A DNA stretch of 53,501 bases from Mesotaenium endlicherianum (Eukaryota). The stretch covers positions 86,330-139,830 of the forward strand of contig WELA01000919.1 in NCBI GenBank assembly GCA_009602735.1, given 5' to 3'. The notes beneath the pieces were generated by a model, which made no database searches, was not told the origin of the DNA, and saw only the letters and a program-made list of their open reading frames with translations. The position numbers were made by a program, and so were the translations under genes. This document shows positions 16,620-37,701 of this stretch, in pieces. Within the stretch, counting starts at the first letter, position 1, and each line of letters opens with the position of its first letter.

Positions 16620-19600
16620 TTATGCAGGCCATGCAGGAGCAGCAATGTCATCAATGGTTGATTGCCGATTCCCAGAGAGGAGGTTGTAGTTCTGGCCACC
16701 CACAGCAGCCCCGCAGTCAGGGCAACGTGAGGCTTGCCTGGCTAACCCGCAGTTGCCAATGGTGTAAATGTGGCCATTGGGGCACTCGTACCAGTGCCCC
16801 CGTCCGCCCACTAGTCTCACCATTGCCTGCACAACCTGCGCCCGCTCCCCGTGCTCCGCTCGAGTTTTAATCTCCTGCGCCTGGAAGTTGTCCGGCCTAA
16901 CGCGCAGGACCGCGTCGCAGATTTTGACAACGTCAGTGAATCTTTGCTCCCCGAGACGCGGAATCGACTCCGCCATGAGAAGCAGCGCCTCGATCGCCAG
17001 GGCTGCGTCGGCGGGCCCAGAGACGGGGAACACACCAGCTGGCGTCGCGCCCGGGCTGCCGTCCCCCCTCACGAGGGCCTCCAGGCCCGCGGGGATGATA
17101 TCTCTGAGGGGGCTGTTGCGCGCAACGGCGTAGAAATGCCTGAGCCCATCCTGGAAGTGCTCCCGGCCAATGAGAGCACGCCCCAGGCCTTGGTGGGCGG
17201 CCGCGAGGCGGGGGTTGCATTCCAGCGCCTGCCGGAAGCTCCGCTCCGCCAGGCTGGGGTTGCCCTCTGCCAGGAGCTCGTTGCCCCGGTTGACAACAGC
17301 AAAGCCGTTGACGTGGGCCTTCACGGTCTCCAGCCTCCTGATGCACTCCTTGACGACGTTGGAGTAGCGCCCCGTTCTCCTGATGGCTGTCCGGCATGCG
17401 GGGCTGCTCAAGTAAGCGGAGAGGGCACGTGTGACGTTGCACACACAAGGAGTCAGTGGAGGAAGCAGTGAGCTTTCTCTCTCCGCACTACCACGGAGTG
17501 GCACACATGGAGCTGGGGGCATATACACCTTGCATGCTGTAAGTGGAGTGTTGTACAGTCTAGGCTGCCGCTGGCACATGCAAATGTCCTCGCTGAAGAG
17601 TGCTGCTCGGAAAGTGACACATGTCAGGAGAGTATGTTTGACATTGTATGCTTTCATTTTCCATAAGCGGGGCAGCTAGTGCACATACCAATCCTTGAGC
17701 TTGACGGCGATTTTGGCTGCACCGCTGTCCGCTGCAGCATCCGAGGTGCCAGCTGTCTCTGGCATGTCCATCCACTGGTCGAGGCCAGAGACCTCAAACA
17801 AGCCGCAGTCCTCCAGCTGAACAAACCAGTCATCCTCCTCCGCCTCGCCAAGTGTCAGCAGCGAGATGGTGTCGGTTACGTCCGGGTGGCATGTGCGGCA
17901 CTTGGTGGGGCACATTTCCCCACACAGCCCGATGCAAGGGTGGCCGCAGCGCAGGCGCCGCGTGCATGGCGCGTCGCAGCGAGGCCGCGTGCAGGCCTCG
18001 TGGCACAGGCGCTCACATGCAAAGTGTGCGCACCGCCACGCGCACGGCTCTCTGCAGGGCAGGCACGGCTCGTTGCACTTGCGCCGGCACCTGGCATGTG
18101 GGCAGCGGCTTTGGCACTTGCGCCGGCAGGGCGGGCAGAAGCTTGCACACTTCTCCGTGCACTCATGGCCGCAGGGAAGGATGCTCTGGCAGGCCTGCTG
18201 GCACGGCACGTGCTGAGTGCCCTGCTTGCACGCGCCGCACGTGCCCACGCACTCGTGCCCGCAGTCCGCCAACTTCTCCCTGCACAGCACCTGGCAGAGG
18301 AAATCCTCCGGCGCATGAGAGCAGGGCATGAGCGCGCGGTGGCCACACGGCATGGCCTTGTCCACCAGCACGGGGCAGCGCTCTGTGCACGGCTGGAAAC
18401 ACTGCCGGTCGCAGGCGTGACCGCAGGCAAGGACCTTGGCACACTTGGCGGCGCATCGGTGGTCCTCCGGCATAGCCGAGCACGCCATGGTCTGCACGTG
18501 GCCGCACTCGGGCACCGTCTTCTGCACGCGGCGAGCGCACGGCGGGCAGCCCTCCTCCAGCCCGTGGCAGCGCGCGTTGCACAGGTGCTGGCATGCGGGC
18601 AGCTCGCGCTTGCACTCCTTGAAGCAGGCGACGTCATTGTGGCCCCCCGGGTGGCACCGCCTGGGGCACGCGTGGCCGCAGTCCAGCTGGAACTCGCAGG
18701 GCTTGCTGCACCCGCCGTCCTCCACCACCTTGAAGTGGGCGGGTTCCGACACCTCGGTGAGCGTGTCCTTGTGGTTCTGGCAGTGCAGCGTGATGGAGGG
18801 CGCCACGCAGCCCTGCTCCCGCAGCTCCCGCAGGACGCGGCCCCACAGCTGCGGGCTCTTGGCGGCCAGCAGCTGCGCGTTGCCGAGCATGAAGAGCCCC
18901 TTGCGCGCGCGCGAGAGCGCCACGCACACGCGGTTGGCCACACCCAGGAACCCGATCTTGCCGGGACCGTCGTGACTTTCCAGGTTGTTGCTCCTCACCA
19001 GCGACAGGATGATGATGTCGCACTCCTCCCCCTGGTAGTTGTCCACGCTGCTCACGCGCGGCAGCCTCTGCTGCTGCTGCTGCTGCTTATGGAACGTCTC
19101 CTGTCCCCCCGGCTCGTCGCGCGCAAACTTGGCACGGAGGAGGCGCTTTATCTCCAGGAGTTGCCCGGTGTACATGGTGAGGATCACCATTTGGCTGTTC
19201 TCATAGCCCTGCTTGAGGAAGTAGGTGCACAGCTCCACGCAGAGGCGCGCCTCGTGGGCGTTGACCTTGCTGCCCAGCTCGCCGTCGTGGTTCTCCGGCA
19301 CCCTGTGGTCCAGGAAGCACAGGCTGCGCGCGACCCCTCTGACCTCCGGATACGCGCGCACGTCCGCGTGGTTCTGGAGGTGCGGGTAGATGATGGGCGC
19401 CACCAGGCGCGCGATGGCCGGGCGCATGCGGTGCTGCACGCTCAGCGTGGTGCCTTCCACGCCGTTGGCCATCAGGCGCTCGAACATGGACACGTCCAGG
19501 CCGTGCTTCTTGGCGAGCGCGTACACGGCCACCGAGGGGCGCAGCTGCTGGTGGTCGCCGATGAGGATGAGGTGCTGCGTGGCGGGCGTGAGGCACGCCA

Positions 19601-22600
19601 GGATGTGTGACTCCAGCACCTCCGCCGCCTCCTCCACCACGATGATCTCTGGCTGCCGCCTCTCAGAGAGCACGACGCAGGGGGAGGGAGGCCCCCAACG
19701 AGAAGACAGGAGGAATGTTATGTCACATGTGATGCAACGGATAGAGTGAATGATGCACGGAGTTCCTATACAAATTCACAGGCACACAGGCACACTTACA
19801 GGCAGGCGATCACGTGTAAAGTACTCCGTGCTACACATGCAGGACACAAGGGGGCGTGGGCCACGCTCCTCTTACTCTCACACTATGACTTTGTACCTAG
19901 GCATCCAGTTCTGACCCATACCGCCTTTGCTTTGTCTTCATAGAAAAGAGTTTTTCCAATCAAGTGAGGGAATGACCAGGGAGACTGGGAGATGAATGGG
20001 AGGAATATAAACCACTGCAAGACCATCAACATGAATTTAGCAGCTGAGTAGTACCCTGAGTCCGATGAGCAGGTCGTGGTAGCGGGCGGCAGCCGTGGTG
20101 GTCATGCCGACCACGCGGCTCTCCCGCAGGAGGCTCAGTTGGATCTCGTTCTCCACCTCCGCCAACTGGCGCCGCGCTTCGCTATACTCCTTGTCGATGG
20201 CCTTGAGCCGGCCGCTCGCCGTCAAGCGGATCTCCGTGAGCCAGTAGCGGTGCAGCACGGCGCGCGCGCGCTCCGGCAGCGCCCACACGTTGGGCTGGCC
20301 CACCACGTCCTCCAGCTGCACCTCCTCCTGCTCTTGCTCCTCCTCTTCGTTGTCCTCAAACTCTGGCTCCCTGTCCACCACTGGCGCCGCCACCTGTCGC
20401 TTCTGCCGCCCTCGCCGCCGGTTATTCCGAACCTCCTGAAAGCCAGCATTGTCTCCCTCTTCTTCCTCCCGGCCCCCACCTTGTCTTCTCAGAACAGCCT
20501 GGTTCTGCCCCTGTCGCTGCTGCTCCGGGGCACCTTCTTGCGGGGCATCAGCTGTGGCTGGAGCTGGGGCCTGGGGGGCTGGCCAAGGAGGAGGAGGTGG
20601 CGCCAGGAGGGCGTCGTTGAGAGGCCTCTGCAGCAGATGCATCTCCGCTTCAGGCCGCCTGCCCTCTGCCGCTGCCACCTGGCCCTCCTCCCTGTCGGCT
20701 TCCAGATCCCTCACTTCGTCCGCATCTCCCACAGAGCCTTCCACGCCATTGTCGTTATCGTCGCCGTCGTTGTCAGCCACCTCCCTTTCAACCCCCCCCC
20801 GCGCCCCCGCCCCCGCGTGGGCTCCGTTGCCCGCCCGATTGTTCAATGCTTCAAACAAGTTTGCGCGATTGCCCCGCGGCGCGTTGGGCCCCTGCCAGGC
20901 AGGTGCAGCCCGAGCCTTCCCCTGCGCTGCCACCTGGTGCAGGTGGCGATGCGTGTTCAGCCAGGTGTTGACGTACTGCGCCGCGCGTGCCCTGTACGCA
21001 GCAGGTGGGCCGTTGAACGCGTCACCGCAAAAGAGGCTGTCTATCTGGTCCTCTGTTGCGACCCCCTCGAGGGACTCCGGCGTGACGGTCTCCTGGCTCA
21101 GCCGGTCGATGTACCGGACGATCTTGGCCTCGAGCTCCTGCTCCTGGCCTCCCACGCGGCTCTCTGGTGCGCGCGCTCGTTCTCCCTGGCCTCGCGCTGC
21201 TGGAAGAGGAGCTCCTGCAGGTTGTGGCGCTTGAGCGCCTCGCTCTTGCAGCTCCCCCCAATGCGCACGATGCTCTTCTCGTACTCCAGGATGCCCTCCA
21301 GGAACTGGTCCAGCGCGTGGTTGGTGTAGCACACCACCAGGATGGGGCCGGTAGCCGCCCCGCCCCCTGTGCTTCCTCCTCCGCCTCCCACCTCCTCGGC
21401 GTCCAAGTAGTCATCCCCGTGTTGCGCAGCCAGCAGCCCCCGCAGCCGCGTGCCCGAGGCCCTGCTGACGTTGGCGAGGAGCAGCCTCATGGCCAGCAGG
21501 CCCACGAACGTCTTGCCGGTGCCAGGCGGACCCTGAATCAGCGCCAGCTCTTTGGTCAGCACGCGCTTCAGCGCCTCCTTCTGGCTGCGGTCCAGAGTCG
21601 ACGTCCACTCCGGCCACTCCTGCAAGATGCGGACTCTCGACGTGCCCAGGTCCTTGCGTATGTCGGGAAAGACGCACAAGAAGTCGTACTCATTGTGCCC
21701 CACCCTCCTCCTGAGGTAGCAGGGGGGCGCCACCTGGGCTTCCAGGTGGATGAGCTGCTGCTGAAATGGAACCTGCTCCATGTCGGGCCGCTGCAGGCTG
21801 CGGAGCACGTGAGAGTACGCCTCAAAGTAGGAGGCTGTTGACTCCGCCATCACGTACCCCTGATCTGCCCGCAGCCACTTCTTCTTGCCCGCGCCCGCGC
21901 CCGCGCCCACTTCCTCTATCATGCGCACGTCGATGAAGCCCCGGGAGAGGTCCTCGACAGTCCGCTTCGCAACCACGGCAAACTGCACCGACTCAAAGTT
22001 GTCGGGAGAGATGCACAGCAGCGCGCCCAGCATGAGCCGCTTGCTGACCTCCCAGTTGACCCGTTGACCGGAGTCAACGCGGAAGCCCAGGCGGTACTCG
22101 ATGCCGACGCGGCCGCAACGCAGGCCGGCAATGACGACATCCTTATAGACGCGCACGTCCTGGGACCTCTTCTTGCCGCCGCCGCCAAAGGTGTCGCTGC
22201 GGTACTGGCGGATACCCACCTTGAGGGGCTGCATGCAGTCCTCGCGCAGCAGCTGAAAGTGCGTCTCCAGGTACTGCAGCACGCCCTCGTAGGGCACCGC
22301 CGTGTGGTTGTGGGGCAGGTCGCGCGCCTCCACCTGGTGCATCTCGTCCACGGTGGGCACAATGGATTGCACGCGAAATGCTTCGCCCTGTGCCAGCCGA
22401 TGTGGGGGGAGTGCACATGTCAAATACAAGTAGGTTCCCAAACACACTTAGTTGTAGGGGTGCAATGAAAGCCCAACCAGGGCTGGACAGGAAGGTTTGA
22501 GGTACCTCTAATACAAAGCTGTACTCTTTCCACCTTATGACCAGCCAAACAGAATAAGAATGGTTCTGCAATATCAATGCCAGATATGCAGTTATGATGC

Positions 22601-24019
22601 CAAAGGAAGTGACGCCAGAATATGGTGCCAAAATATTAAGACCGATGATGCCAGATGCCAATAAAGGACCAAACAATTTGCAAGCACGCGATTAAAATAT
22701 CTTTCTTGTGCAGCTTTTTTGGAGAAGCGCTCATTACAAAGTAGCAATAAATATTTTTTGTGAACAGAACAGCAGGCAGCAGCAATAGCACAGGCAGCAG
22801 CAGCGACAGCAAGAAGCATGAAGCAGCAGAGTTTAGCGCTGAAGTCAACGGTCAAGCTTTGCAAGGGCATGCAGATGAGTGAGCCAGAGTGAAGAAACGG
22901 CAAGCTCACCACCAGTCCCGGCTGAGGGGGCCCGCGCACTGCGGAGGTGACCCTGAGGCGCGCGCGCTGGTCCATCAGCCGCCGGGTGTCGGCCAGCAGG
23001 GACTGCTTGGGCGCACACTCGTCTGGCAGCTCCTCCACGCGCCCCTTGAGCGCGTCCAGTGGCACCTCCCGCCAGCCGTCGGTGGAGCGCGACTGTATCT
23101 CCTCACACAGCTTGACATACGGCAGCAGCGCGCTGTCGGGCTGCCCCGCGCTGAGGCGGAGACCCTGCACGTGGGCATGTAGGCGCGCCAGGAAGGGCGA
23201 GCCCAGCAGCAGGCCGTACACGCGGTTGGTGCTCTCGCGCAGCATGCTGCTGCGCATCTCGTTGCGCGCCAGCACGCGCACCAGCAGGTCCGCCTGCGGC
23301 TGCGACAGCGCGGGGCGGGAGATGATGTCGCCCAGGAGGGCCAGGCCTCTCGCGTCGCTCAGGGTGGGGATGAGGTCCGCCGCGGAGCTCTCCATTTGCT
23401 TCTGCAGCCAGCTCTCCAAGTTGCGCTCGCTCGTGAAGCCAGGTGGCCTCTCGGGCTGGACAAACGATCGAGAGAGGCCGCCTCGGCCTCCCCCGCCAGG
23501 TGGCATGGTGTGCGAGAGCTTGCATCTGCTTCCAGACCTGCAGCCGTCTCCTCGAAGGAAGAAGCGGCAGACAGGCGTCGCGACTGACGCTGGAGACGGC
23601 TCTCCTGCCGAAGCATCTGCTCCCTGTGGCCCAGTAGCGCCCCCAGTGCTCCCTGCGCCGGCCTTACTTCCTCTGCTTCTCCCAGCGGCAGCATGGCCAA
23701 CTGCCGCTCCTTCTCCTGCTGCGGCTGCTGCGGCTGACAGCTCCACGGTCAGCTTGACCACGTTGCCGGGCGCGCAGGAAGAGAAGGCTAGTTGGAGGGA
23801 GTCATTGGAGTCAATTGTTATCTCGTCATCCGCGTCAGAGTACTTGATGCTCAAGTCAGAGGAGCCTCTGCCGGCAAGCCTGGGGTGGACCCGGGATGCC
23901 ACCTGGCACACCTCGTCGAAGGTGAGCGGCTGGCTCACCGTCGCCATCTTGGTGCTCTCGCCAAAGTGCAGCTTCACGCGCATCAGCTTCTCAGCTGGCG
24001 GGCCTGCCTGAGCCTTCAT
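16620..24019 (-). CDS. ZNFX1: ZNFX1-like protein, copy A: PB1 - CCCH ZnF - helical region - UPF1-like SF1 helicase - NF-X1-type ZnF array - RING-like - TPR - RZ finger. Exons 24019(or 24013)-22910, 22387-20055 (frameshift ~21134), 19652-17689, 17403-16620. Possibly a pseudogene.
   Basis: Helicase motifs LIQGPPGTGKT, VVCYTNHALDQFLE, VVGMTTT, IIVVEEAAEVLE (EEAA as in ZNFX1), LIGDHQQLRP, QHRMRP, VDNYQGEECDIIILSLVRSN, RVCVALSRAR. ZNFX1-type YLETHFQLLREDC and WEVSKRLMLGALLC. CGHxC repeats. FVQLEDCG...LDQWM...KLKDC|PAC. C-terminal GHWYECPNGHIYTIGNCG..CPDCGAAVGG. All introns are GT-AG and phase-consistent. Confidence 0.9.
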
Positions 24020-24021
24020 AT

Positions 24022-24119
24022 CAACGAGCAACACGCAACGAGCAACACGCAACGAGCAGCACGCAACGCGCAGCACGCAACGAGCAACACGCAACGAGCA
24101 ACACGCAACGAGCAACACG
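24022..24119. repeat. 14-bp tandem repeat (caacgagcaacacg) x7
   Basis: Seven near-identical units immediately 5' (on -) of the copy A PB1 exon. Confidence 0.9.
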
Positions 24120-24481
24120 AAGGATAGGATCAGACGGTGGTCAACAATCTTCTGCACGCAGTCTGTATTTGGCCTTGACAAATTTATCGAACTTGCACTT
24201 CCATGGTGGACAGCTCGATCTCGATCTCGACATGGCACGTAGCTACAGCTGACTGGACATCAGAAACATGACATTCAGAAGTCAATGCGGCCTGCAACGG
24301 CAGCCTGTCACTGTCAACTCTTCATTTCACAGAGAAATTGTATCATGCCGGCGGGACCAGCCATCAGGCCTGCAAGAGTCACTCGATTCTGGTGAATGTG
24401 ATCAAATGCCAGCTAGACTAGTACTAGCTTGAAAGAGCGCGACCTGGTCTGACTGATCAAATGCGAAACAAGCAATGTTGA

Positions 24482-25285
24482 CTAGCGGCAGGATGCTGGT
24501 GGGCTGGAGGCCACGTTGCTCACCATGTTTGAGATCTCTGCTCGGTCTCTGTCGCCAAATGAAAGCATATGGGAAGCCATCAGAGGAGGCATGGGACCCG
24601 GCATTGGACCCCTCTTCACATCTTCTCGAGGCAAGAGGCCTGGCGCACTTGGACCAACACCCTCACCTCTTCCAAAAGGAGGATGCCAGCGAGCCTGTTT
24701 GCCATCTTTGGCCCCCTTGCCATTCTTGGCCCCCTGGAAACCCATAGCCCCCTTGCCATTCTTGGCCCATTTGCCATCATTAGCCCCCTTGCCATCCTGA
24801 TGGTGGCCGTTGAACCTTTCAGGCGGCCGCGCTCCTGGGCCCGCAGGAGCTCTTGTGGTCGCATCACATTTCTCGCTATTCTTCCAGATTCGAACTCTGA
24901 TCGCCTCTCCCTCTTCACTGTCCACAAAGGCTGTGCGCTTGCAGTCCAAGAAAAGGTTCGACGGCGCTCCCAATCTCTTCAGCATCTCCACCCGCTTGCC
25001 AACAGGGTGCATGTTACAGCAGTGCACCTTCTCTTTCACTGCCTTCTTTGCTGCCAAGCTGCACTGCCGGCTGGTGGATGCCTGGTCACTTGCGCCTGAC
25101 GAGCTGACAGCCGTCAGCTTTACAATCGGCAGCACGCTGAGGCCAAAGCATTGCACTGCCCTGGTATCAAGGCACACATGCCTCGTATTGGTGCCTTCAT
25201 CCACTATGTGAACATGCTCCCTCAAGGCAATGGTTGTTGAACATTGTCCGCATATGAAGCGAGCAGGAGACTCCCCACCACCCAT
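24482..25285 (-). CDS. RIG-I-like receptor C-terminal domain (RLR-CTD)-like zinc-binding protein; probably exon 1 (25285-24524) of ZNFX1-like copy A
   Basis: FICGQC..VHIVDE..HVCL..QCF..KEKVHCCNMHPVG..FVDSEEGEAIRVRIWKN parallels RIG-I CTD LLCRKC..VRVIEE.HYTVL..ECF..RAKIFC....CSHDWG..VVEDIATGVQTLYSKWKD (alignment by eye, from memory). Phase-0 donor ATG|GTGAGC at 24524/24523. Confidence 0.65.
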   Translation of the reverse strand: MGGGESPARFICGQCSTTIALREHVHIVDEGTNTRHVCLDTRAVQCFGLSVLPIVKLTAVSSSGASDQASTSRQCSLAAKKAVKEKVHCCNMHPVGKRVEMLKRLGAPSNLFLDCKRTAFVDSEEGEAIRVRIWKNSEKCDATTRAPAGPGARPPERFNGHHQDGKGANDGKWAKNGKGAMGFQGAKNGKGAKDGKQARWHPPFGRGEGVGPSAPGLLPREDVKRGPMPGPMPPLMASHMLSFGDRDRAEISNMVSNVASSPPASCR

Positions 25286-28200
25286 TTTGCAAGTCTTACT
25301 TCAAGTTGGACTTGCTGCAATAGTTATCTGCACCCCAACACACCGCATTACACCGCATTGCAGAGCGTTAAACGATCAACACACTAAGAAATGCCTCTGT
25401 AAAATGTAGAAGTATAGGGCTCGAGGGCAACGGAGGAACCGGGGCGAGGGACTTCGAGATGTTGCCCTCCTATGCGGAAGTCAGAACGGGGGGGGTCGGG
25501 TCAGGGTAATATGAGGGTCCAATTAGGGTTGATGACCCCCCCTCTAGGGGTTTGAAATAGTGCTCTGGTTGGTTCCGGGGGATTTTTGCCCCTGGTAGGA
25601 GAAATGGCCCGTTTTTTCGTTCGCCCTCGAAATTGAGACTGAGAAATTTCAATGTCTTTCTAACAGATTCTTCAACTTGTTCCTATGCATTGACATAAGC
25701 TTAATAGACATGCGGGCAATGTAAATATTGCCAACATCCCCCACATTATAGTCAATTGTAGTTACTATAGCAAATATATCGGCAACAGTGATGAGACATA
25801 GGTCACCCTTGGGCGATGCATAATCAACCCGTAAGTTTTGAGCACACCCTGTACATTATACCCGGTGGTAACCACTGTGGCAATTATATAGGCTATAGTT
25901 ATGGAAGAGGTAGGGACACCCTCAGGCAATGCATATATGATATGTCATGATGTTGAGATTCTTCTTGAGATGTGATGCTCTTTGTCCTCAAATATATGCT
26001 ATCATAAACTACAAATGTACAACCGCCTATATAGACTTGGAAGGTTACTGGCCAACAAGGTTTCCTGAAGAGCAATAATTAAGAATGAGGAGTCCAACTC
26101 AGTATGTTCCTACTTAAGCAGCATAACTTTGACAATGTGAAGACTCCACAATCACCAGTCTTTCTCGCGTATACTCACTGGGTTGTGAATCTAGTTATGC
26201 ATCAGAAGAAGGCATGTTGGGCCACCTCATGCAATATGCTTGTCCTTCTTAATTTTTCCTTAGAAGTTGTACTGCCTGCAGGTATGAACCTGTCTCCTGT
26301 CAAACAGGACTTGAGAGTTAAGTACTTCACTTGCGGGGGTGAAAGTCAAGCCTGCAGAAAGCTGGCATTGACTGGAAGTAACCATTAAGCGTTAAACAAA
26401 AATACTGAAATCAAGAAGCAGCTTTCTTCCCATTAAGTTAGTGCAAGAAGCAACATATTTCATAAGAAGGTTGGCCCGGCCGACATTGTCCAACAGTAGC
26501 CAAAACTTTTCTTATACCTCACTGAAATGCACCTTCGAAGCAGAGCTTCAGTTCACGAATGCAAGTCGCTTGGACTCGATCGAGTATCCCTAGTCCAACT
26601 GCCAGCTGCTATGCTCCGATGCCTGGTCCCGTCAAGCTGCATTGATCAATCGTGTATTGGGACTCGATTTTGACTTCCTAAAAATCAATGCCGGACCTTA
26701 AGTTCGTTAGAAGATCTCAGGCAGATCCAAATTGAAGTGGATCAAATATATGCCGACGTGGGCCGGAGTCATTGGTTCGCTTGAAGTACCAACTGATTGT
26801 TGTTGACGTGCATTAGGCGTGCCATAGGCGTGAAATAGGCGTAACGCAGGCGTGAAACTTGCGTGAAGGGGGGCATTTGGGGGGATTGACGTGAAATGGC
26901 TTCCGTTTTCTAAGGTCGATGGGACTTGTTTGAGATTGACCCGCTTGAACCGCAGAAACCTGACAGAAACATGAGAACTTGAGCCACTTTTTCGTGTATA
27001 TCATTATACAGTTGACTGGACAATCAACATCGACGATCAATGAACATCAATGATCTTGAAAAGGGACCGCAAGGTTGACCAAGGACCACCACCTGTCGAC
27101 AACCGCCGAGGCTGACCAAGGTGGACCAAGGCAACTACGTTGAAGGCGACCTAAACCTGATCTGGACTGTCAAATTAAATGTACTTCCTGCGATTGGTTG
27201 CTCGTAGTGCGTCTTGTTCGTGCTACATCCGTACGTGTTACAACGACACCACTGGCTTCGAGACTCAGAAGTTGGGTCTATGCATGCCTGCATGCATGTG
27301 CAAGCCAAACTGATGGGACCAGATATGGGACCAATTATTCTGCCTGCACTTGCTCGGTTAAACACGTAAAGAATATCCTTCAGAAGTCTCAGTATGGAAC
27401 GAGGTATTTCTTTGGAAACCGTGTCTTAACGCATCGAATAATGATGGCCTACGCGTGTAGCTACATATCCATGATGCATTGAAGTCTAATGCAGCCATAC
27501 AATGTTGCCAAGCCCGTGGCCCTAATGATGCGATGGTACTCCACGTTCACGTGCCTGAAACAAAGTTAGCTCCTCAAAAATTTGGACTAGGCCATATATC
27601 TATCGTACTGAGATCGTCAAACTACGGTAATTTGAGCAAGATTGCAGGCTTCATTGTCATATCAGAGCTTCGCGAGTTCAACGGGATTTGTGAGCTCATG
27701 TGCACCAGGTATAGAGCTGTGATTGATCAGCTCGATACATGTCCTTTATCACCAAGTTTGAGCTCATCAAAGAAGCCAAAAGCAGCAACTCTCAGACGGC
27801 TGACTTGATGTCGAAGGTGAGCATTTTCCTCTACCCTGTGTTTTCAGATCAGTTTGAAATAGGAGGTGGATGTATCAAAACGGACGGAGTATGTAAAGGG
27901 TAAATATGTACACATTAGTTTATAAACATAAGTAAGCGCTCGAGAAGGCTAACCAAACGCCATATACACTGTCTTGGCTCGCTGGAAAACACATGACATG
28001 TTGTATTAAGGGCCAGGAGCAGTTGACTTCTCTTACGCAGGCGCTCGTGGCAGCCAGGGAGCTCACTCTTCTCTCGTGTAAACAGATACAAGAATTCCAT
28101 TTGAGTTGAAGAACAAATTTTTCAGGCGTCATTGGATTGTAGGCTTTTCAGTATTTTATCCTGTCCTTTGAGCCCCACTAAATCCCCACATGTGGAGATA

Positions 28201-29303
28201 TTATATATCTGTGCACTTCGAGTTGGCAGACAACCATGTTGAAGGGATCAAACAAAAATTGTTGATCCTTGGTCCTGTGCGAGATTAAGCTTGTTGCTTA
28301 TACATCATGCTTATTGAGGACTATAATTAATCTTGTTAACAAAATGCTTCAGAGAGGCACTCTTGGTGAAAAAATCTAATTTTTGACGGTTAACATGCAC
28401 GTGAAGAGCGTGATGACCAATATTTGGGTATTGTGTCGTGTTTGTTCATCCAAGTGAACTGGTAAACACTGCCTGATAAAGCAGCACACTATGACTACCA
28501 GACGTAGAATGACCTTGACTAAGTATTGAGATAACCAGAAACTATATCTGAATCTTCACAGAAAGGTATCTGGGTCAGAATTTGACAACTCTACTAGAAC
28601 TACTGCGGAGTCTGGTGTGCACCAGAAACATCATTTTTTTTCTTTGACCTCATTTTCCAATCAAGTACAAGAAATTACTCAGTAACCCAGTTCCCTGGTT
28701 CAGAGTGAGCTTTGAAGCTCCGGTTGAATGTAAATCGACATACTTCAAATTGTAATGTCGTCTATGGCTGATGTTCATGGCTGATGCAACTATAGCAGTG
28801 GTAAGGTACTGTCGCAGAGGACATGTCTTGGCACATAGTTGTGGGTCAGAAGCTATACGCAAACACTTTTTTAAATTTTCCCTTTTGCTATGGTTGTTAA
28901 TAATTGTCTTTGATTCAGAAACACTTCAATTGAATGTATGTCTTAGACTCAAAAGCACCTTGGGTCGTTAGTGCATAGTAGACAACATTTTCCTTTCTTA
29001 TCGTTGTGCACTGAATCCTCAACTTGAGAACCTCTGGCAATGAGCAATTAATCCATAACCTCTTTGATTGGTTCTTGAGCTTTGCATCAGAGGGCTGAAG
29101 CTGATTTGCATCAGAGAACTGAAGCTGATCCCACTGCCTACTTTATCAATCTTCTAGCTTCATGTCCTCGTCTTCTGACCTAAGTGGTTGTCTTTCTTGG
29201 GGGGCTTCCTACCTCACTTGTTCTCCTTAGTGGGGCCTTCCTTTTGGAGTACACCCGCCAGCAGTGACGAATCCAGAGAGCCATCACAAGTGACGACAAC
29301 AAC

Positions 29304-32300
29304 ATGTCAGCAACTTGCGTTTTTGAAGAGGTGAGTTGCATTTGTTGTGGCACCTCTGCGAATTCAATGCACTTTGTACCACACACTTTCTACACACTTT
29401 GTACCACTTAGTGTGACGTATCAGTTGCATTCAAGAGACCCAGGCTAGCTGACTCTCTTGCAGGGACAAAATAAGCACGACTCCAAAGATGCATGGACCA
29501 ACTGATGCATCAAAATATATATTTTCATCAAGATATGTAAAGTGAGATCCAAAGCCTGACAAGAGATCGTCCTGCTTGTTGGTTAGGGTCTCGCAAGCGC
29601 GCACCTCGGGAAGATGCTGCGCATAAAGATACAGTACATTGACACCACAAAGATGACAACAGTCAGGCAACCTCCAACATTTGAGGAGGTGTGCCATGGG
29701 GCATTGAAGATCCACCCAGAGCTAGCCAGCTGGGGCTCCGTGCAGCTCAGGTTTGAGGCTGCCAGTGCAGACCGCGAGCAGATAGCAGTCAACTCCGACG
29801 ATTCTCTGACTTCTGCAGTCGCTGGCTGCGCACCTGGCCAAGTTCTGAAGCTGAAGGTTGACATGCCGGCTCCTGCTGCTCCTGCTCCTAGTACAAGTAG
29901 CCCAGCAAGTGGCACTACATCTACAACATGTCCTTCAGGTGGTGGCAGGAGAGAGGGAACAAGCAGCAAAAATTTGGAAGGAGGCAAACAGCATATTTCA
30001 AGCACAGGGGCAGCCACCAGCAGGCGAGGTCGGCCTGTCTCTTTTGTTCGGCCAAGCAGCGCCCAGGGCACCTTTGATGAGTGAGCACCACATAAAGAAA
30101 TGGCTGCAGAGCAACCTGGAGCGTCCCACATCAGACCTCATATCAAAACTGAGCAAGGGCGAGGGCGCAGCCACTTTGGGCACCATTGTCTCCCGTCCCG
30201 CGCTGTCGCAGCCGCAGGTGGATGTGCTGGTGCGCGTGCTGGCGCGCGACGAGATGCGCAGCAGCATGCTGCGCGAGAGCACCAACTGCGTGTACGGCCT
30301 GCTGCTGGGCTCGCCCTTCCTGGCGCGCCTGCACGCCCACGTGCAAGGCCTCCGCCTCAGCGCGGCCCAGCCCGACTGCACGCTGCTGCCGTACGTCAAG
30401 CTGTGCGAGGAGATCCAGTCGCGCTCCGCTGACGGCTGGCGGGAGGTGCCCCTGGACGCGCTCAAGGGGCGTGTGGAGGAGCTGCCAGATGAGTGTGCTC
30501 CCAAGCAGTCCCTGCTGGCAGACATTGGGCGGCTGGTGGACCAGCGCGCGCGCCTCAGGGTCACCTCTGCTGTGCGTGGGCCCCCTCAGCCGGGACTGGT
30601 GGTGAGCACTCTTGAAGAAGCTGACTCGTATGCATGCTTGCTGCTTCAGTTACGAAGCTGGTCTTGTTGGGAATGTGGTTGCTGCTGCTGTTGCCTGCTT
30701 GCTTACAGGGTGCATGAGCTTCAACAGTGCATGAATGGTTGTAAAAATAAATATGAATACTCTAACAACCCTTTTTTTTACAGCAAAGTTTATTTCTTTC
30801 TTTTTTACGTATAATTTGCTGATCGCAGTTCTACAATGAAAATACAAGTGTGGAGGAAGCAACCAAATTTTTTCTCTATCACCGGCTTCTCTGCTTTCAC
30901 CTCCTCCTACGGATGTGACCACAACAAGGTCTCTACTACTCACACATTAGTTTCACACTGGACACCATCAAGGTAGCTGAGGGAATGATATCTGATGTCA
31001 GGTGACTTGGCACATCTTCTGGGAAATAAGAATATGATCCCCTCTGCTCCTCTCATTGTTGTGCAGGGTGAGGCGTTCCGCACGCAGCCCATAGTCCCAT
31101 CAGTGAAGGAGATGCGTCACGTGGCGGCGGCTGCTGATCTCCCTGTGAACCACACGGCGGTGCCCTACGAGACCATGCTGCAGTACCTGGAGACGCACTT
31201 CCAGCTGCTGCGCGAGGACTGCATGCAGCCCCTCAGGGTGGGCATCCGCCAGTACCGCTGCGATACTGCCAGTAGTGGCTGCAGGAAGAGGTCCCAGGAC
31301 GTGCGGATCTACACGCACATCCGCATGGTCGGCATCCGCTGCGGCAGGGTTGGCCTCGAGTATCTCTTGAAATTCAAGATTGACTCGGGGAGGAAGGTTG
31401 ACTGGGGCGCCAGCAAGCGGCTCATGTCGGGCGCGCTGCTGTGCATCTCTGCCGACAACTTCGAGACAGTGCAGTTTGCCGTGGTTGCCAAGAGGACGGA
31501 CGAGGACCTTGGAAAGGGCCTAGTTGACGTGCGCATGGTTGAGGAGGATGAGGACGAGAGGAAGGGGCTGCACAACGACAAGGTTTACGTGATGGCGGAG
31601 TCGACGGCCGCCTACTTCGAGGCATACTCGCACGTGCTCCGCAGCCTGCAGCGGCCCGACATGGAGCAGATTCCTTTTCAGCAGCAGCTCATCCACCTGC
31701 ACGCCCAGGTGGCGCCCCCCAGCTACCTCAAGAACAGGGGGATACGCGGCGAGTATGACTTCCTGAGCGTCTTCCCAGAAATCCATAAGGACCTGGGGAC
31801 ATCCAGAGTGCACATTTTGGAAGAGGCCTGGCCGGAGTGGACATCCACCCTTGACCCGAGCCAGAAGGCGGCACTCAAGCGCGCGCTGACCAAGGAGCTG
31901 GCGCTCATTCAGGGGCCGCCTGGCACCGGCAAGACGTTTGTGGGCCTGCTGGCAATGAAGCTGCTCCTTGCCAACGTCAGCAGAGCCTCGGGGAGTAAGC
32001 TGCAGGGGCTCCTGGCCAAGACCGCCGGCGAGAAGCGCCCGGACCTGGCCACTGTCGGCTCTGCTGATGTGCTTGCGGAGCACGGCAGGGCGACTACGGG
32101 CCCCATCCTGGTGGTGTGCTACACCAACCACGCGCTGGACCAATTCCTGGAGGGCATTCTGGCGTACGAGAAGAGCGTCGTGCGCATCGGGGGGCGGTGC
32201 AAGAGTGAAGTGCTCAAGAGCCACAACCTCCAGGAGCTCCTCTTCAAGCAGAGGGACAATCGGAGCAGGGAGAGAGCGCACCACTACGCTCTTAGGGAAG

Positions 32301-35300
32301 CGAGGGCAAGGAGCCGGGGGTCGGAGGAGGACGTGATGAAGAACATCCAACGGCTGCGCCATCCAGCCGTCACGCCTGAGACTCTGCAGGGGGTGGCCAC
32401 CGAGGAGCAGATCAGCAGCCTCTTCTACGGAGACGAGGATGTGCTGGAGGGCTCCCCTCTGATAACAAGGGGACATGCGGCCAAGTGTGTGGAGTTCTGG
32501 TTGATTGAGCATCGCTACTTCCGCCACATGGCGGAAGGGAATTCTCGGAGCCTACCTATTCCTCTCGTTCTCCAGCCAGATGCCGGTTGGGGCAATCAGG
32601 ATAGCCGCTTTAATGCTTTGGTAAGGCCACAAGAAGGCTCAGGCAATGGTGGCAGAGCGCGCGCGCGTGTTGAGCGGGACCTTGGTGACAACGACGACGA
32701 CGACGAAGCAGAGTCGCTCGGAGACGAAGAGGAACTGAGGGAGCTCGAGGGAGACAGGCAGGAGGAGGACTTTGCACTCGGCGGCAGAAGGCAGGCTCAG
32801 GCTCGTATGTATCTTCTGCAGGATCCGAAGGTCGACGACGACGTCGAGGAGAACCTTGATCCCCCTCATCCAGCTTGGCAGGCCATGCAACAGGCAGGTC
32901 AGCAGCACCAGCAGTGGCAGCAGGGTCAACACCACCACCAGCAGCAGCAGCAGCATCAGGCTGCTATGAGAAGGCAAGGGGGTGGAGAGGGGTACAACGA
33001 CGGCTTCCAGGTGGTGCAACACGGCAGAGGAAGGGGGCGGCAGCAACAGGTAGCGGTGCCTGGAGCAGACGGCCCTGGCAATCTGGCTATGGGCTTCGAG
33101 GAGGAGGAGGAGGTGGACAAGGAGAGGGAGGAGGGGGAGGTGGCACTGGGGAAAGTGGTCGACCAGCCTAACGTGTGGGATCTGTCGGAGCATGAGCGCG
33201 TCACGCTGCACAACTACTGGCTGGGGGAGATCCGCGCAGCTGCGGGCAACAAGCTCCCCGAGATTGCCAAGGACTACTGCAAGGCCCAGCGCCAGGTGGC
33301 AGCCGTCGACAACAAGATCCAGCTGAGCCTCCTGCGGGAGAGCCGCGTTGTCGGCATGACCACCACGGCCGCCGCCCGCCACCACGACCTGCTCACCGCC
33401 CTCAAGGTGCTCTTGCATTCTCTCGCCTTTGGGCACTTGCATGCTTCTCGTACCTTCCCAATTTTCCAAAGATTGCGTGAAAGTACCTCCCCAACTCTCC
33501 AGTGATTCTTGCTTGAATGAGAGTTTGATTGTAGTCAACTTTCACTTTTGTATGTCTTGGGCCTAATCCTCCGTGACCCCCCTCACCACGACGGTGTATT
33601 GCATGTCCAAAAGATTCTGATGGCAGGAGTAATTTCCCATGTGTCCAACCAGCACTTGTACGTGCATGGAGTCAAATGCTTGTGGAGCATGGCAGCACAT
33701 AGATTACTCTGCATCTTTTTGTATGGCTCCTCTTTCATGCTTGAACCACATCATCTGCAGTCTGCTTATAATATTCTCTCCATACACAAATTCTATTGCA
33801 AAGCTTCTTCAATATTTGTCAGCCAAAACACATTATGTTGGCATTGGATGCTTCCACAAAGTCATTCCCTGCATGTGGTGTATGAGAAATTTTACGTGCG
33901 AGTGTGTATGTCTGCATGAATGTAATCTACATGTGAGAATCTGTTCCTACATAGATTAGTAGGTCTCTTTGTGCTTCTTTGCATCATATGACAGTTGGCC
34001 TGTCCTCCCATTGGGGCCTCCCTCCCCCTGCGCCGTGCTCTCTGAGAGGGGGCAGCCAGAGATCATAGTGGTGGAGGAGGCTGCGGAGGTGCTGGAGTCG
34101 CACATCCTGGCGTGCCTCACGCCCGCCGCGCAGCACCTCATCCTCATCGGCGACCACCAGCAGCTGCGCCCCTCGGTGGCCGTGTACGCGCTCGCCAAGA
34201 AGCACGGCCTGGACGTGTCCATGTTTGAGCGCCTGATGGCCAATGGCGTGGAGGGCACCACGCTAAGCGTGCAGCACCGCATGCGCCCGGCCATCGCGCG
34301 CCTGGTGGCGCCCATCATCTACCCACACCTCCAGAACCACACGGACGTGCGCGCGTATCCGGAGGTCAGAGGGGTCGCGCGCAGCCTGTGCTTCCTGGAC
34401 CACAGGGTGCCGGAGAACCACGACGGCGAGCTGGGCAGCAAGGTCAACGGCCACGAGGCACGCCTCTGCGTGGAGCTGTGCGCCTACTTCCTCAAGCAGG
34501 GCTACAGGCATGACCAGGTGGTCATCCTCACCATGTACACCGGTCAGCTCCTGGAGATTAAGCGCCTCCTGCGCACCAGGCTCACGATGCCTTATCTGCC
34601 ACATGTCAGCAGCGTGGACAACTACCAGGGAGAGGAGTGCGACATCGTCATCCTGTCGCTCGTCAGAAGCAATCACCTGGAAAGTCACAACGGGCCCGGG
34701 AAGATCGGATTCCTGGCGGTGGCCAACCGCGTGTGCGTGGCGCTCTCGCGCGCGCGCATGGGGCTCTTCATGCTCGGCAACGCGCAGCTGCTGGCCGCCA
34801 AGAGCCCGCAGCTGTGGGGCCGCGTCCTCCGGGAGCTGCGGGAGCAGGGCTGCGTGGCGCCCTCCATCACGCTGCGCTGCCAGAACCACGAGGACGCACT
34901 CACCGAGGTGTCGGAGCCCGCACACTTCCATGCGGTCAAGGAGGGTGGATGTGGCAAGCCGTGTGACTGCCAGCTGAACTGCGGACACCTGTGCCCCAGG
35001 AGATGCCACCTGGGGGGCCACGATGACGTGACCTGCCCAAGAGACTGCAAACGCGAGCTTCCCGGATGTGAGCATCAGTGCAGCTCACGCTGCCACGGGC
35101 TGGAAGAGGCCTGCCCGCCGTGCGCGCGCCGTGTGCAGAAGATGGTTCCCTCCTGCGGCCACGCTCAGACCATGGCGTGCTCGGCAAGGCCGGAGATCCA
35201 CCTGTGCCTTGGCAGTTGCGCCAAGGTGCTCGCCTGCGGGCACGCCTGCGACAAGATGTGCTACCAGCCGTGCAGTGAGCGGTGCATTGTGCTTGTTGAC

Positions 35301-37608
35301 AAGGTGATGCCATGTGGCCACGACACGCGCGTGCGTTGCTTCCAGAAGCAGGAGGAGCTCAAATGCAACGTCCAGGTTGAGAAGACGTTGTCGTGTGGCC
35401 ACAGCACGCGCGTGCGCTGCTCACAGAAGTTGGAGGCGGTTGAATGCCATGTCCAGGTTGAGAAGAAGCTGCCATGTGGCCATGAAGCAGGCATGCCCTG
35501 CCCACAGAAGCTGGAGGATTACGTGTGCCAGGTGGCGGTGGACATACCGATGCCATGCGGCCACACTGAAGAAGTGCCTTGCTTCCGCAGAGAGGAGGCG
35601 CTTTCGTGCCGTGCCCTTGTGGACAGGGTCGCGCCATGTGGCCACGGTGCCACCATGCCCTGCTCTGAGAAGCTGGAGGACTTTGTATGCCGCGCTCCCG
35701 TGGACAAGAAGCTGCCGTGTGGGCCTGGCCATTCTGCGCGCATGCCTTGCTTCCTGAGCGCGTCGGAGTTTGTATGCCGTACTCGAGTGGACAAGGTGCT
35801 GCCTTGCGGCCACTGTGCCCGCGTGCGTTGCTTCCAGACATTGGAGGGTTTTGAATGCCACATGAAAATCGACAAGGAGATGCCATGCGGCCACCACGCG
35901 CGCATGCCCTGCAACCAAGAGCCGGAGGAGGTTGAGTGCCAGGTGCCGTGCAGGGAGAGGCTGACGCAGTGCGGGCACGAGTGCGTTGGCACGTGCAGCG
36001 CTTGCAAGCGGGGGACTCAGCACGTGTCGTGTCAGCGGGCCTGCCGGAGCATCCTGCCCTGCGGCGACGCATGCGTGGAAAAGTGTGCCAGCTTCTGCCC
36101 GCCCTGCTGGCGCAGGTGCCAGAGCCGCTGCCGGCATGCCAGGTGCCGGCGCAAGTGCGGCGAGCCGTGCCTGCCCTGCAGGGAGCCGTGTGCGTGGCGC
36201 TGCGTTCACTTCTCGTGCGAGCACCTCTGCCACGAGGTCTGCACGCGGCCGCGCTGCAACGCACCGTGCACGCAACGCCTGCGCTGCGGCCACCCCTGCA
36301 TCGGGCTGTGCGGGGAGGCGTGTCCTACCAAGTGCCACACGTGCAACCCGCATCTCTCAGCTGCAAAAGGCGACACAAAGGTGGCTATTGGGGCGGACCG
36401 CGAGATGCGTTGCATACAGCTGGAGGATTGCGGCCACTTGTTTGAAGTGGCAACTTTGGACCGCTGGATGGACGCACAGAATACCTGCAGCCCTTTGGAT
36501 GTTGCCTCAGACGCGGAGCATGATGCCACCACCAGAGGCGGTCTGAGGCCGCCAGCTGTTCCAGTCAAGCTCAAGGAGTGGTATGTACGCACTCGTTAGC
36601 ACCTGGCCCACTGGCTGATTCTCGGAGCACTCCTAGTTGCAGTAAGGCTAGCCTTAGGGCTAGGGCATCTTACTCACCGCATGACATTGGAGCACGCATA
36701 CTGACGGTCCAGATTGTTGGCTGCGTGTCTACCACCACGCTGGCATGCACCAAACTTCACTCTAGATGTAGTTAGGTGGTCAGTGCCCACGCCAGGTATG
36801 CATCCAGATCTGCACGGTCCGTTCAGCACCTGGTGTTTGAGATTACCCACCACAGGCCCCCAGCCCTGCTCTGACATGTGGCTTCTTTCTGGCTGCCACA
36901 CTTACCTGCGCAGTGCGCGTTGCGCGACCCCTCTCTCGCTTTGTTGTCTTTGCTGTGCATGACGTGCGCAGCCCCGAGTGCGGGACTCCCATCAGGAGGA
37001 CCACTGGGCGCTACTCCAACATAGTGAAAGAGCGCCTCGGGAGGCTCGAGGCCGTGAAGCGTCAGATCGTTGGATACGATGCCGTCAATAAAGGGAATCT
37101 GCTGCTGACCGGCAGTCACCCCAAGTTTGCCGAGCAGAAGTTCCGGCAGGCCCTCCACTGCAACCCCCGCCTGCCCGGCGCCCACCACGGCCTGGGGTTG
37201 GCTCTGCTCGCGCAGCAGTATTGCCAGAGTGCGCTGAAGCATTTCTACGCTGTTGCGCGCAGCAGCCCTCTCAGAGACGTCATCCCTGGGGGCCTCGAGG
37301 CCATTGTGAGGGGGGATGGCCGCGCTGGCTTGTTGCCAGCTGGCAATCTCCCCGTCTCGGGGCCTGCCGACTCGGCCTTGCAAATTGAAGCGCTGCTTCT
37401 CATGGCCGAGACGATTCCGCGCGTCAGAGCCCAAGCTTATCTTGATGTCATTCAGATCTGTGACACCGTTCTGAGTATTGAGCCCGAAAACGCCGCGGCC
37501 AAGGAGATGAAGAAGCAGGCACAAATTCACTTTTTCCCACTTTCTGCGAGCCATCGAGCACAAGTGGTGAACAGGACAATGAGAGAAGTGGGCAAAAAGG
37601 GCCAGTGA
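29304..37608 (+). CDS. ZNFX1: ZNFX1-like protein, copy B: PB1 - helical region - SF1 helicase - expanded NF-X1-type ZnF array - RING-like - TPR, truncated before the RZ finger. Exons 29304-29330 (tentative), 29587-30601 (frame disruption ~30050-30080), 31067-33406, 34056-36580, 36972-37608
   Basis: Same helicase motifs and same intron positions as copy A (GLV|GEAF, LK|PEII, KEC|PEC). CIQLEDCGHLFEVATLDRWM. TPR-like VNKGNLLL..AEQKFRQALHCNPRLPGAHHGLG. Stop TGA at 37606-37608. Confidence 0.88.
35283..35936 (+). repeat. Eight tandem ~81-bp coding repeats (27-aa C-x3-V-D/E-K-x-x-P-C-G-H-x5-C zinc-finger unit)
   Basis: CIVLVDKVMPCGHDTRVRC, CNVQVEKTLSCGHSTRVRC, CHVQVEKKLPCGHEAGMPC ... CHMKIDKEMPCGHHARMPC in the 33969..36599 ORF. 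Confidence 0.9.
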
Positions 37609-37701
37609 TATGAGTGCCTCCAAGGCCATGTGTTTGCTGCTGGAGAGGGTGGCGGGGCCCTGGATGTTTTAAAATGCCCCAATTGTACAGCTGAAAGCTG
37701 A
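37609..37701 (+). pseudogene. Degenerate RZ-finger remnant downstream of the copy B stop
   Basis: In frame after TGA: YECLQGHVFAAGEGGGALDVLKCPNCTAES*, aligning with copy A YECPNGHIYTIGNCGLARQASRCPDCGAAV. Confidence 0.85.

Follow-up and report, generated by a model that had tools for sequence, protein, structure and literature searches.

A spliced first exon encoding a likely beta-tent zinc domain at the front of a ZNFX1-like gene in Mesotaenium endlicherianum

Gene Organization at the Locus

The window analyzed here is a 53,501-nucleotide stretch from Mesotaenium endlicherianum, a zygnematophycean alga. Its minus strand carries copy A (25285–16620) and its plus strand copy B (approximately 29587–37608), two ZNFX1-like genes in head-to-head orientation. 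Copy A encodes, in order, an exon 1 domain, a linker, PB1, a CCCH zinc finger, ARM, and the ZNFX1 helicase. Its family membership is supported by Pfam profile matches (PF25396, E 2.9e-26; AAA_12, E 1.2e-39; RZ, E 3.1e-23), and eight helicase motifs were identified.

Residues 1–140 of exon 1 (24866–25285, minus strand) form a likely beta-tent zinc domain, as judged from the sequence and ESM Atlas, and have an RNA depth of 3–6 in run X13; the key residues are C12, C15, C89, and C90, together with E30, H36, K86, G96, D122, G126, W134, and K135. The sequence of residues 141–254 (24524–24865) is a Gly/Pro/Ala-rich low-complexity linker containing an 18-nt tandem repeat at 24699–24798. Intron 1 (24014–24523; 510 nt, GT..AG, phase 0), defined by junction reads and loose read ends, carries a 14-nt repeat in seven copies (24022–24119) immediately before its acceptor. 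Exon 2 (22910–24013), placed by Pfam, blastp, and intron reads, encodes PB1, the CCCH zinc finger, and a putative ARM, labeled from its position and its similarity to plant homologs. Exon 3 (20055–22387, 2333 nt) encodes the ZNFX1 domain, helicase motifs I and Ia, and a long insertion, and is frameshifted at 21098–21150, where it is 7 nt shorter than a third copy, paralog C. Exon 4 (17689–19652) encodes helicase motifs II–VI, NF-X1-type fingers, and a Z-RING-like region, and exon 5 (16620–17403) encodes TPR and the RZ finger, in which the Cys is kept (16751) and the His is replaced by Tyr (16688). Three further introns of copy A (22909–22388, 20054–19653, and 17688–17404) are supported by reads.

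Copy B is a nearly silent paralog with PB1, in which the RZ finger is cut by a TGA codon at 37606–37608; over long segments it is 99.9–100% identical to the stored model ME000680S09085. No homolog of exon 1 was found for copy B within the window. At 35500–35870, copy B has an expanded array with extra Cys-rich finger repeats relative to copy A and paralog C. The neighboring genes in the window, a DENN-domain gene (7120–10298) and a GCK-domain gene (38154–39968), showed no sign of a link to the fusion.

Splicing and Expression of Exon 1

Exon 1 is spliced in frame onto exon 2 of ZNFX1 copy A. The open reading frame runs from 25285 to 24482 on the minus strand (267 aa), and an in-frame stop five codons ahead of its ATG identifies 25285 as the start. 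The first-pass annotation of this DNA had located a GTGAGC donor at 24524, behind codon 254, and an acceptor at 24014/24013, both in phase 0; these sites are in the DNA and are used exactly by RNA reads, and the junction reads that it had proposed as a check were found. In the stranded run X13, nine reads with eight different starts, with first mates on the plus strand, join 24524 to 24013 and skip 510 nt, and in run X15 three reads with short overhangs carry nine loose letters that equal the end of exon 1. The joint was thus seen in two of six RNA runs, both from one study; none was listed in runs X7, X10, X11, and X14, where the depth over exon 1 is little or none.

RNA depth was zero in three bins spanning 24115–24477 in three runs, and the depth in the two edge bins of intron 1 (about 11 and 12) is accounted for by exon letters alone. 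Owing to this empty intron, neither a transcript ending at 24482 nor an independent start of copy A at the ATG at 24019, the outcome that had been named as speaking against the fusion, is supported. Overall, exon 1 is an expressed, 762-nt open exon with a clean phase-0 splice. The matching tag|GGT acceptor that had been noted in copy B is likewise present in the DNA, but no read supports its use, copy B being nearly silent.

Upstream of copy A, a repeated element lies at 25446–25595, where RNA reads and contigs from another locus show approximately seven common differences and a common loose end. Minus-strand RNA at 25960–26623 (depth 2.7 in X15) could come from an independent transcript or from an untranslated exon with which copy A begins further upstream, and the contig depth of run X1 is low over 25960–27951. 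No Rfam match was found at 24000–29600 of the window.

Homology and Fold of the Exon 1 Domain

Pfam searches with the whole open reading frame, the domain, and its halves (E up to 1 or 10) returned no PF11648, PF24046, or PF03226 row, under search filters that drop most matches with E above 0.1; the sole match of the domain was a weak Nudix zinc ribbon on the first CxxC. The NCBIfam search gave no true relative, and phmmer against the PDB gave a single chance match (E 0.49), with none to the solved C-terminal domains (CTDs) of RIG-I, MDA5, or LGP2. In protein libraries covering lengths up to 2000 aa—an intact fusion would be about 2317 aa—no homolog of residues 1–145 was found among 21 candidates of 79–254 aa or 402 of 255–2000 aa, nor was one found among 22 candidate stretches from viral contigs and 183 from genome contigs. 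Two other matches were rejected: the sole phmmer match among 1.84 billion representatives is a repeat protein in which the motifs are not shared, and the one match among 263 metagenome candidates runs antisense to an unrelated bacterial gene, presumably a glycoside hydrolase 57.

Two single-sequence AlphaFold models of the domain gave pLDDT values of 32.1 and 33.8 and no confident fold; Foldseek with the first, low-confidence model (pLDDT 32) returned no match with E below 0.001, and its list is meaningless. In the ESM Atlas, the top match (0.92, with 198 of 256 features in common) was a streptophyte cluster in which 11% of members carry At4g08330 (PF24046), followed by clusters of At4g08330 (0.89), cullin (0.88), and FAM72A (FAM72A/YPEH2ZP; 0.87). 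Nine of the ten best named matches fall in one clan, and with three families excluded Yippee-Mis18 came first (0.85), with all ten in one clan. Another Streptophyta cluster (0.89), 13% of whose members are Yippee-Mis18, is automatically named “C-terminal domain of RIG-I,” and no RIG-I_C-RD cluster was shown in either list. The Atlas ranking is a feature score, not a structure match, and is weak or at best moderate evidence because its recognition value of 2190 lies below the tool's mark of 2300; in the null comparison, 4–10 per 100 shuffles reach 0.9. Taken together, a beta-tent fold is quite likely. In PMC4287342, Yippee, Mis18, CULT, MsrB, and the RIG-I domain are described as one such fold, in families about equidistant from one another and joined by weak cross-matches.

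In a comparison set of prokaryote genomes scanned for RLR CTD or CULT sequences, PF11648 was found in 0 of 401, plus one weak match in a further five, and PF03226 in 22 of 401 and 2 of 5; all 22 extracted loci are MsrB-like, two with internal stops having been left out. The MsrB profile scores the exon 1 domain no better than shuffles (1052 of approximately 1936 scored as high; 105 of 150 with hhalign), and MAFFT misaligned the domain with the MsrB-like loci. This comparison is uninformative, because MsrB and RIG-I are themselves without significant similarity according to PMC4287342.

It is possible, if somewhat doubtful, that exon 1 encodes a plant-type beta-tent domain (At4g08330/Yippee/CULT-like) that has proteins or small ligands as its partners and works as the substrate adaptor of the ZNFX1 E3 module, with its resemblance to RIG-I-like receptors (RLRs) reflecting a common fold pattern. 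The nearest Atlas clusters (At4g08330, Yippee-Mis18, and FAM72A/YPEH2ZP, mostly Streptophyta, at 0.92, 0.89, and 0.85 for At4g08330 and Yippee-Mis18) and the lack of a RIG-I_C-RD cluster argue for it, and its source would lie within the plant genome, making gene transfer unneeded. YPEL5 and FAM72A have adaptor roles. The approximate equidistance of the families also fits, as does the description of CULT as a ligase substrate-binding domain in PMC4287342. The clusters comprise short proteins (70–163 aa). On the other hand, the exon 1 domain has no Pfam match to PF24046 or PF03226 either, and one Atlas cluster bears the RIG-I name. The terminal D..G..W-K extension, moreover, is a typical feature of RLR CTDs but is atypical of Yippee. 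The first-pass annotation had proposed setting RIG-I/MDA5/LGP2 against Yippee/CULT by fold; AlphaFold answered with low confidence, and the Atlas places At4g08330/Yippee first, close to the result named there as counting against an RLR domain.

Comparison With RLR C-Terminal Domains

All of the motifs earlier named in exon 1 are in the sequence, namely C12xxC15, VHIVDE..H36, QCF, KVHCCNMHPVG, and D122..EG126..W134KN. The claim that they follow the RLR CTD pattern end to end, beyond chance or beyond other beta-tent families, was not confirmed: profile, sequence, and structure tests gave no RLR match. By eye, the domain is like the RLR CTD (RIG-I, MDA5, LGP2; PF11648) in its length of approximately 130 aa, leading CxxC, E..H loop, and terminal basic-Trp motif, but it lies N-terminal to an SF1 helicase, whereas RLRs carry their CTD on the C-terminal side of an SF2 DExD/H helicase, and it has a longer Ser/Ala-rich middle loop. 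Its second zinc site reads H88-C89-C90-N-M-H93, a C-C pair and not CxxC or CxC. K86 sits three residues before C89, and the net charge of the domain is +7.

Residues were mapped onto the RLRs by eye, and residue roles were taken from PMC11346460, bioRxiv 2022.08.02.502180, and PMC4885022. In the last of these, the Glu571/His574 loop and the 644-KKKYKKWS-651 motif are given as RNA-contact features of chicken LGP2. By eye, the E30..H36 spacing exceeds that of chLGP2 Glu571/His574 and that of chMDA5 ENMH by three residues, and AIRVRIWK (128–135) keeps the Trp and two basic positions of 644-KKKYKKWS-651 in a post hoc comparison. In the RIG-I 5′ppp pocket (H847/K858/K861/K888), only K861 seems to be kept (K86), with V83 at the K858 position and D114 at the K888 position in the by-eye alignment. 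Aromatic residues cap blunt ends in RIG-I and LGP2 and are absent from the stem binder MDA5; exon 1 residues 48–85 likewise contain no aromatic residue that could form a capping loop. Residues for binding 5′ppp and blunt ends thus appear to be missing from the domain and, if it binds RNA, backbone binding seems likelier than end sensing.

In line with the first-pass proposal of an RLR CTD, exon 1 could be a true RLR CTD that switches on helicase and ligase upon recognizing dsRNA ends that are blunt or carry 5′ppp. By eye, CxxC, E..H, K-x-x-C, G, and the terminal W-K are ordered and spaced in keeping with RLR CTDs, and fusion to an antiviral helicase family fits such a function. This reading is nevertheless improbable, given the lack of a RIG-I_C-RD or PDB match, the single pocket position that seems kept, the missing aromatic cap, and the absence of RLRs outside animals reported in PMC3879448 and PMC4287342. 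Because the membership tests that could be run gave no RLR match, the domain is not filed as an RLR CTD. What stands of an N-terminal RLR CTD fused to an SF1 ZNFX1 helicase is the fusion by splicing and, moderately, the beta-tent fold; the assignment to RIG-I/MDA5/LGP2 is not supported.

ZNFX1 Family Context

Human ZNFX1 and copy A share the order ZNFX1 domain, AAA_11/AAA_12, finger array, RZ, and mammalian ZNFX1 is about 39% identical to copy A over exon 3. Compared with the human protein—an SF1 helicase with ARM, NF-X1 fingers, and a Z-RING/Miz plus RZ E3—copy A adds the exon 1 domain, PB1, CCCH, and TPR, but it is frameshifted and lacks the base equivalent to H1881. In human ZNFX1, ssRNA binding relieves autoinhibition, ARM binds structured RNA, and RNA activates the E3 (PMC13710534; bioRxiv 2025.09.05.674436, 2025.10.14.682297), whose catalytic RZ residues C1860 and H1881 lie 21 residues apart (bioRxiv 2025.10.14.682297).

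Streptophyte PB1-CCCH-ARM-ZNFX1-TPR-RZ proteins (Selaginella, Adiantum, Riccia, Marchantia, and Calypogeia) are 38–47% identical to copy A over exon 3 and, like it, have PB1 and/or CCCH ahead of the core and TPR and RZ behind it. The land-plant ZNFX1 models with PB1 begin at or near PB1, and a domain like residues 1–145 was found in none of the 120 listed of 2318 homologs (752–2145 aa; best phmmer E 0.51). Since lycophyte, fern, and liverwort proteins have the PB1 layout without exon 1, PB1-ZNFX1 appears to be an old streptophyte layout and the first exon an addition. Exon 1 represents a lineage-specific domain gain in an algal ZNFX1 that is real, expressed, and, it appears, undescribed.

Other ZNFX1 homologs carry N-terminal RNA-binding modules, namely cold-shock domains and an Argonaute. 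In the Funneliformis protein P0030, a full Argonaute lies ahead of the ZNFX1 helicase, an arrangement that may be genuine or may stem from the merging of gene models. Separately, two tandem ZNFX1-like segments (L002 and L003; 47–48% identity) on contig CAXXBX010000025.1, labeled as a Dehalococcoidia MAG, are probably eukaryotic contamination.

Damage in Copy A and the Evidence From Paralog C

Between shared anchors, copy A measures 80 nt and paralog C 87 nt, and alignment to copy B likewise leaves copy A 7 nt short by gap count. The spliced frame of copy A stops at residue 1052 (21100–21098), after motifs I/Ia and before motif II, and no continuous frame through helicase and E3 was found in copy A. 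No indel, inserted letters, or X15 loose end was listed at the break (X15 depth 6; X1 contig depth 26) among the listed rows, although short reads differing by 7 nt may have been excluded by the 96% threshold. The frameshift is probably real. The 7-nt shortfall, at 21098–21150, falls inside a run of short AGGAGC-like repeats and looks like slippage.

The E3 end has also changed. In the Z-RING-like region of copy A, the His of the CxH pair is absent, with no His codon near 17801–17804; this His is kept in copy B, in paralog C, and in six of eight plant homologs, the other two giving no match. In the RZ finger the catalytic Cys is kept and the general-base His is Tyr, paralog C keeping both residues, and five of the six departures of exon 5 from conserved columns lie in RZ. 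With a frameshift before motif II and a degenerate E3 end, copy A cannot make an integrated sensor-helicase-ligase as its sequence reads. Both copies in the window have a damaged RZ (16620–16800 and 37580–37700) and paralog C an intact one, a pattern in which the catalytic end of the E3 was lost repeatedly.

The helicase exons of copy A showed no relaxed selection following the frameshift (10 versus 12 and 12 versus 16; Fisher p 0.37, with the post-break part of exon 3 left out), and this lack of excess change indicates that the frameshift is recent or an artefact. Copy A is well expressed, with X15 depth up to 17. Over 17900–22010, most reads of run X14 have other letters at several places, unlike those of X15 from the same study, and probably come from another paralog expressed in that sample.

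Paralog C (ME000680S09086; P0003) lies outside the window and is 88–94% identical to copy A in the helicase. Its model is continuous across the copy A break and begins with MHPVG, which equals domain residues 92–96, a few residues ahead of the PB1 exon. Among stored proteins, MHPVG occurs in P0001 and at position 1 of P0003 only, with about 1e-4 expected by chance. Judged from these five residues, paralog C probably has a homologous first exon that was truncated by annotation. The shared MHPVG start suggests that the exon was gained before copy A and paralog C split and, because copy A is frameshifted in the assembled DNA, a full-length fusion would likely come from the sister copy. In one contig of run X2, the start of the PB1 exon abuts a different intron, which agrees with a further copy of this kind.

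The damage bears on whether exon 1 is captured sequence in a duplicate gene under decay, giving no protein that folds or is of use, with the Atlas match then due to chance. The frameshift and the lost RZ and Z-RING His residues would accord with this, as would the failure of every search to find a homolog, the low-confidence AlphaFold models, and a weak codon bias (GC3 of 0.63 in exon 1 versus 0.79–0.89 in exons 2–4). Such a capture is unlikely, however, in view of the long, cleanly spliced, and expressed open exon, its paired zinc-ligand layout, the same MHPVG motif at the start of paralog C, and the lack of excess change in the copy A helicase exons.

A broader and doubtful proposal is that the domain is a genuine RLR CTD homolog outside animals, acquired at the N-terminal end of ZNFX1 in the algae that are sister to land plants. 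One protein would then unite dsRNA reading of the RLR type, polymerisation through PB1, an SF1 helicase, and ubiquitin ligation by a two-part module; it would be intact in paralog C, and copy A would act as a truncated reader-PB1-ARM decoy or regulator.

Proposed Role of the Exon 1 Domain

Our main reading, to which we assign a probability of roughly 40%, is that exon 1 encodes a likely beta-tent zinc domain acting as an accessory RNA-binding module of ZNFX1. It draws on the junction reads and empty intron, on the Atlas score of 0.92 with clan-consistent matches that persist when three families are excluded, and on the by-eye likeness to the two RNA-contact features described in PMC4885022. 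The lack of an aromatic in residues 48–85, as described for the stem binder MDA5, the N-terminal RNA-binding modules of other ZNFX1 homologs, and the restriction of MHPVG to P0001 and position 1 of P0003 point the same way. Against it stand the absence of a Pfam, NCBIfam, PDB, or library match, the low confidence of both AlphaFold models, the C-C form of the second zinc pair, and the lack of known RNA binders among the nearest Atlas families.

As such an accessory module, the domain is predicted to grip the backbone of duplex RNA rather than 5′-triphosphate ends. Zinc would be held by C12/C15 and two of H88/C89/C90/H93, and RNA would be bound through a basic surface comprising K86, R130, R132, W134, and K135. 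The bound RNA could then be handed over along the 114-residue linker to ARM and the helicase core; in animals, RNA activates this core, which promotes ubiquitination. PB1 is a polymerisation module and may aid polymerisation here.

Significance

In animals, ZNFX1 is an RNA-activated helicase and ubiquitin ligase (PMC13710534), and no paper on plant-lineage members was found in the open-licence literature. The spliced-in accessory domain suggests how an alga may tune ZNFX1 targets. If the domain is At4g08330/Yippee-like, the fusion would still hint at a function for an uncharacterised plant family. If it is an RLR CTD homolog, it would contradict, at the level of the sensing domain, the published view of RLRs as animal-only, and would make a small RNA sensor from a relative of plants available for testing.
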